A stretch of 64,000 nucleotides of DNA from a virus, in IMG/VR virus record IMGVR_UViG_3300021478_000794, positions 25,391 to 89,390 of that record. The stretch is one strand, 5' to 3'. How positions within the stretch are numbered: position 1 is the stretch's first letter; each line of letters opens with the position of its first letter. The notes beneath the pieces were generated by a model. It made no database searches and was not told the origin of the DNA. It was given only the letters and a program-made list of their open reading frames with translations. Made by a program: the position numbers and the translations under genes. Positions 1 to 60,023 of this stretch are shown here, one piece after another.

Positions 1-314
1 TCATTACGGGAGTCGGAACGGCCTATCCGACGACCTGGACTCCTCCTCCGTCGATCGCCGGATCGGTTAGTAACCTCGGCGTCTGGACGAACCCGTCCTC
101 CGCTTTAAGCGATTTCCTTAACGTCCAGTACCTTTCGGTCGAGGCGGTTTGCGCGGTTACCCGGGCGAGGATTAAACCGGGCGAGCCGGTCCTCATCCTT
201 GACGAGCATATTATCTCGAAACCGGCCTTTACCCGGTTACTCCGGGAAAGCTTCGAGAAAATGATTACGCCGAAGGTCGAGACGATGCACGAAATCTCGG
301 ACTACGATAGTTAA
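1..314 (+). CDS. 5'-truncated hypothetical protein ending in the shared MHE-x-S-G-W-D-type tag
   Basis: Frame open from nt 3 to TAA at 312-314; ends ITPKVETMHEISDYDS*; not in the ORF track. Confidence 0.8.
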   Translation, partial: ITGVGTAYPTTWTPPPSIAGSVSNLGVWTNPSSALSDFLNVQYLSVEAVCAVTRARIKPGEPVLILDEHIISKPAFTRLLRESFEKMITPKVETMHEISDYDS

Positions 315-1075
315 GCCGTTACGGTAAAGTTAACCGTCGCGCTGGCCTGACGGTCGACGCCCCGGACGTAAACCGGGACGGTCCCGACGATTAGATCGTA
401 CGCCGGTACTACCACCGTCATTAAGGTCGGATTAACGAACGTCGGCGTCTTCGTCTTTCCGGCCCATTTTACGATATCCCCGTCGACGAAATTATTCCCG
501 ACTAGATTGAGCGTTAGCGTCCCGAGCGCGGCGCTCGCGGTCGACGGCGAAAGGCTACTTAGAACCGGCGCGGGGCCTAAGGCCGCCCGGAGATCTAAAT
601 AAAGCGGATTACTCGTAATCGCCGGGCCGCCGGTATTGTCCTGGACCGTAACGAGGATAACCCGGGAGGCTCCTAAGGTCGTCGGATCGAGTCCCGCGAC
701 CGTTAAGGTATTCGGATCGGTTAAGGTCGTCGGATAAGAGATCCCGTCTAGGAGGACGACGCAGCCGCTATCGAACCGCCCGCTCCCGTCTCCTTTTACG
801 ACGAACGAGAAAGGCGCTCCGTTCGTTCGCGCTACCCGGGGAGTAACCGAAGAAAGGTAAATCGGAAAAGTCGGAGCTGGGTCGAGGGAAGGAACGAAGG
901 AAGTAAATAACCCCGAAACCTTCATCGGATTAAACAGACTCGTCGCATCCACAACATCCGTCACCCGTAAGGTACCCGGGGATTGAACCGTAACGGGAGG
1001 GAGGAGGTTAAGCTGACGGAGGAACTCTTTGACCTGATTGTCAGCCGTCGGCGAATAAGTAATCGTGTAAGGCAT
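311..1075 (-). CDS. IPT/TIG (Ig-like) repeat virion protein
   Basis: Two Ig-like repeats (LSSVTP...G.F.SG; PVLSSLSP...GNNFVDG); start MPYT at 1075 lies 6 nt after a GTATTTA motif. Confidence 0.7.
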   Translation of the reverse strand: MPYTITYSPTADNQVKEFLRQLNLLPPVTVQSPGTLRVTDVVDATSLFNPMKVSGLFTSFVPSLDPAPTFPIYLSSVTPRVARTNGAPFSFVVKGDGSGRFDSGCVVLLDGISYPTTLTDPNTLTVAGLDPTTLGASRVILVTVQDNTGGPAITSNPLYLDLRAALGPAPVLSSLSPSTASAALGTLTLNLVGNNFVDGDIVKWAGKTKTPTFVNPTLMTVVVPAYDLIVGTVPVYVRGVDRQASATVNFTVTA

Positions 1076-1081
1076 GGACGA

Positions 1082-1098
1082 TAAATACCCGCGTTCTA
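1082..1098. promoter_or_regulatory. back-to-back class B (GTATTTA, minus) and class C (CGTTCTA, plus) motifs
   Basis: Same arrangement recurs at 49287-49301 between divergent genes. Confidence 0.6.
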
Positions 1099-1114
1099 GA
1101 TAATTAGAGGGACT

Positions 1115-1576
1115 ATGAGTTACGACAGTACCCCCGACACCCAAGAGCATATTTTTAAGGTCGCCTCGAACCTCGACGCTATCATATTTAATTTAAGCCA
1201 TCGCTCCCTCGTCCACGACCGATCGAAATTCGGGCCGGTCGAGAAGGAGGCCTTCGACCGGCTAACTCCCCGGCTTAAAAATTTAACATACGGGAGCGAG
1301 GAGTACCGGGCTTCCCTCCGGGAAATGAAACCGGCCCTCGCGCATCATTACGAGCATAATTCCCACCATCCCGAACATTACCCCGGCGGGGTTCTCGATA
1401 TGAGCCTCCTCGATATCCTAGAAATGTTGGCCGACTGGAAGGCGGCGGGTGAGCGGCACGACCCCCCTAACCCCCTCGATAAATCGATCGCCTACAACGC
1501 CGAACGCTTTAAACTCTCGCCTGAGATGACGAAAATCTTATCGACGACGGCGCGGGAACTGGGATGGATCGTATGA
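1115..1576 (+). CDS. DUF5662-like HD-fold protein
   Basis: HDRSK...ALAHHYEHNSHHPEHY...DILEMLADW pattern. Confidence 0.75.
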   Translation: MSYDSTPDTQEHIFKVASNLDAIIFNLSHRSLVHDRSKFGPVEKEAFDRLTPRLKNLTYGSEEYRASLREMKPALAHHYEHNSHHPEHYPGGVLDMSLLDILEMLADWKAAGERHDPPNPLDKSIAYNAERFKLSPEMTKILSTTARELGWIV

Positions 1577-1734
1577 CGAGGGACGAACTTTTTATCGTTA
1601 TCGCGAAGCTAAAGGAAGAGCACGGGGAGGCCTTCGATCGTTGGTACGATCAGGCCAATTTCCCGGATATCGAAGATTATTGCAAAACCGGCTTCGTCTT
1701 AGAACGCTTTTTCGAAGGAACGAGCGCCCTCTAA
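1573..1734 (+). CDS. small hypothetical protein (53 aa)
   Basis: ATGA overlap with upstream stop; MTRDELFIVIAKLKEEHG...; followed by terminator. Confidence 0.6.
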   Translation: MTRDELFIVIAKLKEEHGEAFDRWYDQANFPDIEDYCKTGFVLERFFEGTSAL

Positions 1735-1739
1735 AAATG

Positions 1740-57858: not shown

Positions 57859-57890
57859 ATCCCCTACATTTCGTGAGGGTACTTTAAGCC

Positions 57891-58130
57891 GTGCCGAAGG
57901 GATTTAAGCTCCGGAGCCGGATCGTGAAGGTCCGCTCCCTTAAGGATTACGAGGAAACGCCGGACGGCGACGAGATGCTGGTTTTCCGGGAAGAAGGAGA
58001 ACCCGCCGACGTCGAAGAGACGATCGCGGACGATTTCCGGCTACTCAACCAGCGTTTCCCGGGCCCGTTCTATCGCCTCAGTATAACACCGCTTAAAGAA
58101 CCCGGCGATATCCGGCGCTTCCTCCGCTAA
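57891..58130 (+). CDS. hypothetical protein
   Basis: GTACTTTA motif upstream of GTG. Confidence 0.45.
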   Translation: MPKGFKLRSRIVKVRSLKDYEETPDGDEMLVFREEGEPADVEETIADDFRLLNQRFPGPFYRLSITPLKEPGDIRRFLR

Positions 58131-58382
58131 CCGGTCGAGGGTCCCGAGATCGAGCCCCCAGAGGCGCGACGAGACTTCGAGAATAAAGGTTTCGTCGCTC
58201 TTCGCCGCGAGCGCTTTCTTAACGAAGCCGTGAACGTGGGCCGGGCTATACCCGGGAGGAACCGGGAGCTTCTCCGCGACCGCCGAGGCGGTTACCCGGA
58301 GTTCCGCGATTACCTCCCCGAGCGTCACCGCTCCTCGTCGTCCTTCCGGCGAAAACAGTTTTTCGTTAACCTTTCCGCCCAA
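58041..58382 (-). CDS. hypothetical protein
   Basis: ORF; start uncertain. Confidence 0.5.
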   Translation of the reverse strand: MGGKVNEKLFSPEGRRGAVTLGEVIAELRVTASAVAEKLPVPPGYSPAHVHGFVKKALAAKSDETFILEVSSRLWGLDLGTLDRLAEEAPDIAGFFKRCYTEAIERARETLVE

Positions 58383-58579
58383 TCGTACGCGGCCCGATAA
58401 CTAGGGAAAGGGGATTCGAGGAGTTTCTCGCCGATCTGAATAAAGAAAAAATGGGACTTTTCGAGAATCGAGATCGAGGGATGATTTAAACGCAACATTA
58501 CTATCATACAACCTCCATTTCGCAAAATCCAGCCCGGCTTCTTCCGAGGTACCTACGTTCTTAAAGAGAAAACGACCTC

Positions 58580-59329
58580 ATGAGCGAAACCCAATATTCC
58601 GAGATCGCCTCCGTCGGAGGAGTAAAAATCTACTCAATCTCCACTTTAGTCTCCTCGACCTCGGATTCTTTCCCGGAGGTTATCCTCTATAAATCGGAGA
58701 TGACGATCGACGGCGACGGCGGCCCCCATACTTATAACCCGGAGGATACCGGGCTCGATTTTTTAGCGAACGGCGGCTATCCGGACGACGGCTGCTATGG
58801 GATGGTTACCGATCCGGAAGATTCGGAAGATCCCGCCGATTGCATCCTCCAGGAGATGTACCATCCCGCCCCCGGTTACTTCGTAAGCGCGACCAGCTTA
58901 ACGAACGAGATCTTCCCGCCCTCTAGCCCGGACCATTACGTTAACTCGGAGGAGATCCCCTTTATCGCCGTTCCCGGCGGGCACGACGACCCGGACGTCC
59001 CGGGCTGGGACGCATTCGGGGTTTCGCTCGGGGACGTCGCCTTCGTCTGGAATACGGCGACGGACGATAACTGCTTCGCGCTCGTCGCCGACGTCGGCCC
59101 GAGTTCGCACGCCGGAGAAGGCTCGATTAAACTCGCGACCGCCCTCGGGCTAGAGGGAAGCCCGAAGTACGGCGGGACGGAGAACCCGGAGATCGTCTAC
59201 CTCCTCTTCCCCGGCGCGATCGGAAAGTGGACCCCGCCGGACCATTGGTTCCCGCTCGCGAACGAACTCCTAAAAGCCTGGGGCGGGTTCGACCGACTAA
59301 AGGCGCTCGTCGCGGAAATCTACGGCTAG
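58580..59329 (+). CDS. glycoside hydrolase family 75 (chitosanase-like) protein, candidate endolysin
   Basis: MTIDGDG, VNSEEIPFIAVP, ADVGP, GEGS..LA.ALG, YLLFP. Confidence 0.8.
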   Translation: MSETQYSEIASVGGVKIYSISTLVSSTSDSFPEVILYKSEMTIDGDGGPHTYNPEDTGLDFLANGGYPDDGCYGMVTDPEDSEDPADCILQEMYHPAPGYFVSATSLTNEIFPPSSPDHYVNSEEIPFIAVPGGHDDPDVPGWDAFGVSLGDVAFVWNTATDDNCFALVADVGPSSHAGEGSIKLATALGLEGSPKYGGTENPEIVYLLFPGAIGKWTPPDHWFPLANELLKAWGGFDRLKALVAEIYG

Positions 59330-59667
59330 GCGTCCCAGCCGGAGACTTCGTGCATCGTCTCGATCGCGGGGACCGGCGGACCTAACCCCCAGCCGACCTT
59401 CCCTTTCCCGCCCCGTTTCCCGGGTACCCGTCCGTAGAAGAGGCGGCGTCCTTCGCGGTCGAAGATCGCGTAGCCGTCTTTAAACTCCTGGAGATGAAGC
59501 TGAGAACGAGGGGTTCCCGAATTCTTCGTAATATGGCGGAAGAGAAATTCGCATTTTTGTAAGACGGTTTTCTTCCCTTTTAGGAGATAGGTTTTCCCTT
59601 TCTCCTCCGAAGACCAGTAGTAGATCGTAACCCGACCTCGTTTTTTCGTCGTTATCATGCGTCCCAC
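59326..59667 (-). CDS. hypothetical protein with C-terminal tag
   Basis: Ends PPVPAIETMHEVSGWDA*. Confidence 0.75.
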   Translation of the reverse strand: MGRMITTKKRGRVTIYYWSSEEKGKTYLLKGKKTVLQKCEFLFRHITKNSGTPRSQLHLQEFKDGYAIFDREGRRLFYGRVPGKRGGKGKVGWGLGPPVPAIETMHEVSGWDA

Positions 59668-60023
59668 CCGCTAAATTCGTGCATTATTTCGATCGAGATT
59701 TCGTAAATCGTAAAAATGGCCGTGATATGTTGCGTCTTCGCTTTAAAATCGACGTAGGTATCGACGACCCGTTTAAACCGGAGACCGAAGACGTCCGGTA
59801 AGACGTCGCTCGCGACCGGAGGAAGAGTATCGAGGAGAAGGCGATCGCCGCTATAAAGATAAAGCCGCCGCTCGCTACCGAGCCGCTTAATTTCACAGCG
59901 GTTCGGCCAGCTCGGGATATTCGTCAGCGCAAGCGAGACCCCGAAGGAACTATTTTTATTCGTCCCGACGATCTGGATCTCGATCGCGTTCTCCGGCATT
60001 AACCCGGGTAATTTTATATTCAT
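59655..60023 (-). CDS. hypothetical protein with C-terminal tag
   Basis: Ends EISIEIMHEFSGWDA*; CGAAATGTA motif 6 nt upstream. Confidence 0.75.
   Translation of the reverse strand: MNIKLPGLMPENAIEIQIVGTNKNSSFGVSLALTNIPSWPNRCEIKRLGSERRLYLYSGDRLLLDTLPPVASDVLPDVFGLRFKRVVDTYVDFKAKTQHITAIFTIYEISIEIMHEFSGWDA

Follow-up and report, generated by a model that had tools for sequence, protein, structure and literature searches.

Encapsulin cargo-loading peptides are short C-terminal sequences that send unrelated proteins to a shell of the HK97 fold, and at the 3C-type Q/E↓G,S,A junctions of RNA viruses (the arrow marks the cut or, further below, the proposed cut) a fixed residue precedes and a small residue follows the cut at every junction. 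In phage T4, a capsid targeting sequence is present on internal proteins named IPI, IPII and IPIII, as well as on Alt (Mullaney and Black 1996, as cited in PMC7411985), and the prohead protease gp21 and its relatives cut after Glu (PMC7411985). Polyvalent proteins, found in phages and in conjugative elements (Iyer et al. 2017, PMC5512222), combine 2-15 unrelated domains; their genes lie beside virion genes, and packaging and processing have been predicted for them. Here we describe a short peptide tag that recurs, either at the C-terminus or between modules, in unrelated proteins of a phage with a T4-type capsid. The DNA analysed is a stretch of 64,000 nucleotides (the window) corresponding to bases 25391-89390 of the 89,390-base virus record IMGVR_UViG_3300021478_000794, which is classed as a provirus by IMG/VR and as about 40% complete by CheckV. 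The tag is real, far beyond chance expectation and absent from the literature searched.

With the T4 signal the tag shares its character of a short peptide common to unrelated proteins, the presence of a gp23-type capsid protein and a gp21-type protease, and an end formed by Glu followed by a small residue; the leader of one polyprotein in the window is also of similar length. The T4 signal is, however, N-terminal, ends in L/I-x-E and is removed, whereas the tag has a W/Y/F-D-E end, lies C-terminal to its module, would not be lost from the product and is also found at the end of stand-alone proteins from non-structural operons. An N-terminal position as in T4 was seen only for a degenerate copy, the leader of the protein at 34246-35595, while the nine strong copies are C-terminal. 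Polyvalent proteins, the nearest concept on record, are matched in that up to 10 unrelated modules occur in one polypeptide, encoded beside virion genes, and weak ParB_N and methyltransferase matches fit their domain repertoire; the MuF, portal fusion and zincin-like peptidase anchors were, in contrast, not detected by Pfam in nine polyproteins, and neither a conserved 12-residue joint nor the same peptide on stand-alone proteins is described in that account of polyvalent proteins (PMC5512222), where the word 'linker' is absent. Like encapsulin peptides, the tag is short and C-terminal and would give unrelated proteins a common destination, but the sequences differ, and nothing in encapsulins corresponds to internal copies that carry a putative protease site. 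The resemblance to 3C-type junctions is that each putative cut has a fixed residue in front of it and a small one behind; the 3C-type sites are short, however, and do not recur as the C-terminus of separately encoded proteins, as the tag does. In the literature searched, tailed phages are not described as having polyproteins of this viral type.

A short peptide recurs in unrelated proteins of the phage

A six-frame regular-expression scan for M-H-x4-[WYF]-D returned exactly eight matches in the window, at the very places given by the first-pass annotation, an earlier model-made reading of the same DNA. Five of the eight stop one residue past the motif, the same five for which this had been claimed, and three are internal, each followed by E-A. 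Extension of the scan to the whole record and to relatives, as that annotation had proposed, added further tagged proteins in other phages (see below) and a ninth, terminal copy outside the window, in a protein of 78 amino acids (aa; G000:C1 11977-12213, minus strand); a tenth, degenerate copy is the N-terminal leader of the protein at 34246-35595. When all six frames were searched with a hidden Markov model of the tag, the nine copies scored 8.2-34.9 bits against 4.1 bits for the best noise. Matches to the loose motif numbered nine, against a mean of 0.015 per genome and a maximum of one in 200 first-order Markov simulations, a null that keeps the dinucleotide bias of the genome. The motif strings did not occur in the literature searched.

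The tag is conserved at the protein level, because its Ser is encoded by TCN in four and by AGY in four of the window copies and third codon positions vary; a DNA repeat, already discounted by the first-pass annotation, is contradicted by this codon usage. Dinucleotide odds ratios, calculated strand-symmetrically over window positions 1-64000, were 0.30 for CA/TG and 1.55 for CG, a stronger bias than is usual among phages. The tag thus keeps its ATG-CAY and TGG codons in the face of a strong bias, as had been proposed from their use of the avoided CA/TG dinucleotides. The proteins that carry the tag were said to be unrelated upstream of it, and with the tags masked this held for all pairs (E≥0.36) save the two modules within the protein at 34246-35595, which are alike (E=2e-20). 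One carrier, at 57049-57450, had been recognised as having the fold of the bL12 C-terminal domain, and its residues 61-116 indeed match the Pfam Ribosomal_L12 C-terminal domain above the gathering score (40.9 bits against a cut-off of 25.9, E=2.7e-10).

Tagged proteins and polyproteins in other phages

Metagenome contigs searched with a four-tag alignment yielded an 8-kb copy of this phage and a 119.8-kb soil contig, Ga0210402_10000046 (119,818 bp), for which the data consist of three 20-kb stretches. These hold 23 tags, distributed over a 1675-aa frame with ten internal tags between unrelated modules, a 731-aa frame with five tags that lies between spike-like and gp25-like baseplate genes (L021; open reading frames read by eye), a 335-aa frame with two tags, a 222-aa frame with one internal and one terminal tag, and several small proteins with terminal tags. 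Across the 60 kb, blastp at 1e-5 matched only tag carriers to this genome, with a nearly identical tag. A profile search of 1.84 billion representative proteins retrieved 19 at E≤0.001, 11 of them at E≤1e-10, including polyproteins of 1578, 1460, 1016 and 846 aa, and the relatives display variant tags such as E-D-M-H-T-M-R-G-Y-D-E and E-E-M-H-E-I-S-G-W-D-E. The tag family is genuine, though rare. Three DNA patterns derived from the tag gave only chance matches in IMG/VR (≤10.5 bits, to unrelated conserved proteins), two scans of GTDB genomes for the tag yielded one spurious 46-codon frame in a Propionivibrio genome, and the 731-aa polyprotein had no tblastn match among GenBank phages even at E≤10.

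The 87 modules delimited by tags fell into 46 clusters (blastp, 1e-4), and orthologous polyproteins string them together in different orders. Few domains could be recognised, and most of those weakly. Pfam searches of nine polyproteins gave only sub-threshold matches to ParB_N (18.9 bits against 26.3) and Methyltransf_23 (25.0 bits against 27), and the stand-alone carriers of the relative contig matched WGR (27.3 bits) and DUF6011 (50.1 bits). A HELNH module at the C-terminus of P0005, considered as kin of the HExxH peptidase of the window, showed no similarity to it (best E=0.31).

The variant MHTMRGYDE also resembles Pfam DUF3679 (PF12438) over 12 residues (profile positions 24-35), below the cut-off (21.1 against 22 bits). 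The sub-threshold segments are residues 221-232 of P0006 and 632-646 of P0007, G000 being without a match. Among control genomes, matches to this family came from Bacillus subtilis and Caulobacter vibrioides, in one of the two above the cut-off. This likeness is probably due to chance.

Terminal and internal tags obey a common positional rule

Pooling all sources gave 83 distinct tags, 14 terminal and 69 internal. All 14 terminal tags, which come from several phages, end exactly one residue after the invariant Asp, none at zero or two residues after it, and the last residue is Ala in eight, Glu in three, Ser in two and Asp in one. Internal tags have Glu after the Asp in 68 of 69 cases, against 3 of 14 terminal tags (Fisher p=2.6e-10), and the residue that follows is small in 64 of 69 (S26, A25, G7, T6). 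They sit at module junctions, not at the random internal positions that the first-pass annotation had named as an argument against its own proposal. The last tag of late proteins is usually capped by an extension, of 3, 5, 7, 8, 15, 17, 19 and 19 aa. Within the two genomes for which context is available, M-H is followed by Thr in 20 of 21 internal tags but by Glu in 9 of 11 terminal tags (p=1.8e-5); in other lineages M-H-E is used internally.

Given the D-E-small pattern of internal tags and the uniform end of terminal ones, the internal copies look as though they were cut after Glu, which would recreate the same free C-terminus. The simplest reading of these sequences is that internal copies are cleavage junctions after Glu and that the exact free terminus is what matters. 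The earlier proposal of a tag that works as a free C-terminus is strongly supported, at the level of sequence comparison, by the terminal copies and by the D-E-small pattern of the internal ones; the role in polyprotein junctions and the division into two classes had been missed.

Tag carriers and head module of the window

Table 1 Tag carriers and head genes in the window (coordinates in the 64,000-nucleotide stretch).
Feature	Coordinates	Strand	Description
Carrier 1	3..314	+	142 aa; gene start at -114, outside the window; terminal tag VETMHEISDYDS at 276-311; stop at 312-314
Carrier 2	14380..14808	-	142 aa; between RuvC-like and helicase genes; terminal tag IAEMHEISGWDS at 14383-14418
Carrier 3	23243..23770	-	175 aa; in tail-fibre/baseplate operon; internal tag VETMHTMSGWDE at 23288-23323; masked form
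Major capsid protein, gp23-type	32607..34034	-	divergent neighbour of the polyprotein
Head-adjacent polyprotein	34246..35595	+	449 aa; tag 1 at 34840-34875, tag 2 at 35344-35379
Prohead protease, T4 gp21-type	36072..38132	-	Peptidase_S77 at residues 30-185, plus long acidic scaffold-like region
Carrier 5	57049..57450	-	133 aa; core like the bL12 C-terminal domain; terminal tag VSNMHEVSAWDA at 57052-57087
Carrier 6	59326..59658	-	110 aa; terminal tag IETMHEVSGWDA at 59329-59364; gene start overlapping the carrier 7 stop
Carrier 7	59655..60023	-	122 aa; terminal tag IEIMHEFSGWDA at 59658-59693

The head-adjacent polyprotein most likely starts at the ATG at 34246 and not at 34213, the start initially assigned to it. 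It is composed of the degenerate leader, module 1, tag 1, module 2, which is homologous to module 1, tag 2 and a tail of 70 aa (35380-35592) that is conserved. The leader comprises the first 22 residues, is acidic and ends in ...LEAEDLRLLNGYDE↓A (34270-34311, ...NGYDE↓A). In the orthologue P0011, the place of L-L-N-G-Y-D-E↓A in the window protein is taken by L-L-N-E↓S, by its sequence an L-x-E site of the canonical T4 type. The two kinds of site may accordingly serve one enzyme, and cleavage would need far less than 12 residues. The tail (...PFSMWSNTDKYVPV.SEEDRELLYG...FL.VGKLMES) is shared by P0006, P0011 and P0014 and, in part, by P0013, and may be the real prohead-binding part of this polyprotein. 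An AlphaFold2 model of module 2 was weak, with a predicted local distance difference test score of 63.5 and a predicted template modelling score of 0.54, and placed the tag after a long helix and a proline-rich linker; a Foldseek comparison of the model with the PDB found nothing better than E=0.06 at a template modelling score of 0.2. The ESM Atlas, which lists the protein without a model, gave no match, and a word-index search with the C-terminal 40 residues of a carrier returned only the protein itself. Among the other carriers, carrier 3 continues for 14 aa after its tag (23246-23287), and carrier 2 has a near-identical relative, P0018.

The protease matches Pfam PF03420 with 56.9 bits (cut-off 27; E=2.6e-15) and the head maturation protease family phrog_207 (E=1.4e-30), and PF03420 was found in all 51 of its homologues. 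The capsid protein is about 30% identical to those of Bacillus phage SP-15 and Listeria phage LIS04, and PF07068 is present in all 99 close capsid relatives. Its N-terminal propeptide contains ...EAKGWKE..., a segment found throughout the clade, and AINE↓D (residues 70-73), which is a canonical [LI]-x-E site; canonical sites of this kind occur both in the capsid protein of the clade and at the N-terminus of its protease. Capsid residues 18-41 (L-x-E-T-x-M-G...S-L-x-E-A-K-G-W-K-E) are kept down to about 37% identity, a conservation of the propeptide segment that far exceeds the needs of a cleavage site. Aligned with the tag, the ...L-x-E-A-K-G-W-K-E part shows a weak in-register likeness (hhalign P=0.05). 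The GWKE sequence was considered as the maturation site of the capsid protein, an idea weakened by the alignment with T4 gp23, which starts at residue 80, by the canonical [LI]-x-E↓D at 71-73 and by the poor significance of the likeness to the tag.

Polyprotein homologues P0006, P0011 and P0013 lie on contigs of 21,800, 5,050 and 10,375 bases, and the capsid or protease homologues P0022/P0121, P0124 and P0123 are listed on contigs of those same sizes. Equal sizes being taken to mean the same contigs, linkage of the polyprotein to the head module looks conserved in three relatives.

Tag classes mostly follow different upstream motifs

The sequence CGAAATGTA lies about 6 nucleotides before the ATG of many non-structural genes, at window positions 5007, 6595, 8830, 10543, 31682 and 35586, with further sites at 43942, 55930, 57032, 57873 and 60038 and, elsewhere, in L022 (172-9713) and L020 (1704 and 14954). 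Seven occurrences were counted in 10 kb of Ga0210402_10000046, a contig that is unrelated in other respects. A signal for transcription or translation is probably common to both phages. Carrier 7 has the motif 6 nucleotides before its ATG and carriers 6 and 5 lie downstream of such starts, carrier 5 following a gene whose start bears it; carrier 2 is found among replication genes. On the relative contig, CGAAATGTA directly precedes three terminal carriers, namely a WGR-domain protein, a small winged-helix-looking protein, for which Pfam gave no significant match, and a 111-aa protein.

The polyprotein, the protease and other structural genes (starts 43721, 45306 and 49307) have instead GGTATTT 8-22 nucleotides upstream (at about 34226, 38160, 43745, 45330 and 49290), a candidate late-gene signal. 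Terminal tags thus mostly accompany non-structural genes, probably early or middle ones to judge by gene content, and masked tags accompany structural genes, judged in the same way to be late.

Proposed mechanism

The mechanism that we propose builds on what is observed, namely the motif, its two positional classes, the D-E-small rule, the S77 protease, the linkage to the head module and the operon classes. The motif, of about 12-14 residues, may be written as P-x-[IV]-E-[TD]-M-H-x-hydrophobic-[SR]-G-[WYF]-D-x and appears to belong to large phages from soil that have T4-type (gp23) capsids and form a small clade. We give roughly even chances to the proposal that it is a recognition tag working as a free C-terminus, either made directly or freed by a cut after Glu, most likely by the S77 protease. 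Its working form would be a free C-terminus exactly one residue after the invariant Asp, and this could be reached by two routes. By one route, small stand-alone proteins, mostly from CGAAATGTA operons, would simply stop there. By the other, proteins of the late structural modules would carry a masked tag, ...D-E followed by S, A, G or T, which would either form the joint between unrelated modules (two here, up to ten in relatives) or be capped by 3-19 residues; a cut after Glu would then free each module with the same C-terminal tag. This cut would most likely be made within the prohead by the S77 prohead protease of the T4 gp21 type that the phage itself encodes. The tag would thereby mark proteins that act at the start of infection, the injected modules being unmasked in the capsid and the early proteins tagged directly, and one shared reader, which needs the free C-terminus, would recognise all of them.

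A more specific version, which we hold only tentatively and as less probable than the general proposal, is that the tag acts as an address label, in which the free-carboxylate peptide would plug dozens of effector domains into one dedicated reader while the prohead protease arms late cargo in the capsid. Late cargo would stay silent, as polyproteins or behind C-terminal caps, until cut, and the virion would deliver ready-cut tagged effectors that join the early tagged proteins at the same hub.

Several points weigh against the proposed recognition tag. Cleavage, the enzyme responsible for it, packaging of the modules, binding and the existence of a single reader are all deduced from sequence. 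The P3 residue of the proposed cut is aromatic (W/Y/F) and not the L/I of the T4 consensus; canonical [LI]-x-E sites do exist in the clade, and an S77 enzyme may or may not accept W-D-E. The catalytic core of the protease (residues 44-200) is identical in three phages with the tags SGWD, RGYD and SGYD, so the protease cannot discriminate between tag variants, and the proposal does not account for the uniformity of variants across a genome; a co-variation of protease and tag was rejected on the same grounds. Genomic context comes from two genomes only, one of them about half covered. As to operon classes, the CGAAATGTA genes are probably early or middle, a timing guessed from gene content; carrier 1 has upstream a GTATATTT stretch that resembles the late motif, and the 78-aa terminal carrier has neither motif.

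If the proposal is true, tailed phages can use true polyproteins with a uniform junction, and the same peptide is a portable C-terminal label. The set of injected and early-acting proteins would then be readable straight from phage sequence, the phage would offer a natural case of effector arming by proteolysis inside a capsid, and the tag would be a short sequence to try for loading or routing foreign proteins in T4-like phages.

Alternative explanations

The tag could instead be a T4-like capsid targeting signal, read in its internal form by the prohead core, with all carriers packaged and the cut after Glu being ordinary maturation. The T4 internal proteins and Alt do share a core-binding propeptide that ends in a gp21 site (PMC7411985), the 22-residue acidic leader of the window polyprotein (...YDE↓A) is similar to that signal in place and length, the polyproteins are linked to the head module, and the in-register likeness of tag and capsid propeptide, weak as it is (hhalign P=0.05), points the same way. 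A polyprotein would need no more than one signal, yet each of its modules has a complete tag; an active internal form gives no reason for the exact one-residue end of the 14 stand-alone copies; most stand-alone carriers are found in non-structural CGAAATGTA operons; and the tag would stay on its cargo and not be removed. Tags also differ between phages that have a 98% identical capsid protein and an identical protease core. We regard this explanation, the chief rival of our proposal, as unlikely, and as less likely still a second one, in which the free tag is a C-terminal degron read by a host or phage AAA+ protease or adaptor and masking protects the late precursors. Degrons of the ssrA type depend on a free C-terminus, and a degron would fit the free carboxylate at a fixed distance, the masking of late copies and the near-identical tag of two diverged phages that share CGAAATGTA. 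Its tail, W-D-A/S/E/D, is not of the non-polar, ssrA-like kind, however, its 12 conserved residues exceed the needs of known degrons, and variants that differ between very close phages would be odd if the reader were a conserved host protease.

That the tag is only a junction, an extended protease recognition sequence doubling as a recombination joint, with the stand-alone tags as functionless leftovers, we consider quite improbable. The shuffling of modules between polyproteins, with the tag as the constant joint, speaks for such a role, and by eye the 78-aa carrier resembles short polyprotein modules. Leftovers would drift, yet all 14 terminal tags end alike and keep the M, H, aromatic and D residues, and they do so against the CA/TG odds ratio of 0.30; a cut would, moreover, need far less sequence, as in the L-L-N-E↓S leader of P0011. 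A nucleic-acid element, whether a translated part of a promoter, a terminator or a recombination site, is hardly credible at all. The stop codon of a tag does lie 10-20 nucleotides upstream of CGAAATGTA in two cases, but only 2 of 16 CGAAATGT sites follow a tag, Ser is encoded by both TCN and AGY codons with variable third positions, and all copies are in frame in long open reading frames at a fixed distance from the stop.

Candidate readers of the tag

The capsid protein of the phage with the RGYD tag is 98% identical to that of the window. Near-identity of the capsid protein and identity of the protease core despite different tags make it unlikely that either distinguishes tag variants. The cluster of MoxR-type ATPase, HExxH peptidase and VWA-like genes, among the partners suggested by the first-pass annotation, is a weak candidate for the reader: it is co-regulated by the CGAAATGTA motif, nothing specific ties it to the tags, and it belongs to widespread phage families, phrog_1314 covering the genes at 5014-6576 and 3742-4992 and phrog_1297 the ATPase. 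The VWA-like gene at 3742-4992 had no Pfam match even at E≤1.

The genes at 3742-4992 and 5014-6576 (minus strand) match the C-terminal and N-terminal parts of phrog_1314, respectively, as in a split form of one protein, and this pair adjoins the MoxR-type ATPase. The label of phrog_1314 is HNH endonuclease, yet the match found here is to the metallopeptidase DUF2201_N.

Other features of the phage

In the part of the record upstream of the window are genes for a portal protein, for a single-strand DNA-binding protein like gp32 and for a UvsX-like recombinase. A contig of 254,649 bases is listed with the same capsid, protease and carrier proteins, so the complete phage is probably much larger than the virus record. 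Among the public sequencing runs listed, the whole stretch or a part of it is present in five from soil metagenomes and in none from RNA; 12 kb of the window had no megablast match among phages. Next to the 78-aa carrier, a 174-aa protein (L017; G000:C1 11425-11949, minus strand) has an apparent signal peptide and its own CGAAATGTA motif, and the two genes lie on the opposite strand inside the tail gene module, like an inserted accessory pair. A 240-aa frame at 1790-2512 (minus strand) is rich in repeats of the RPVDPGYGYPE type and may encode a proline-rich repeat protein.

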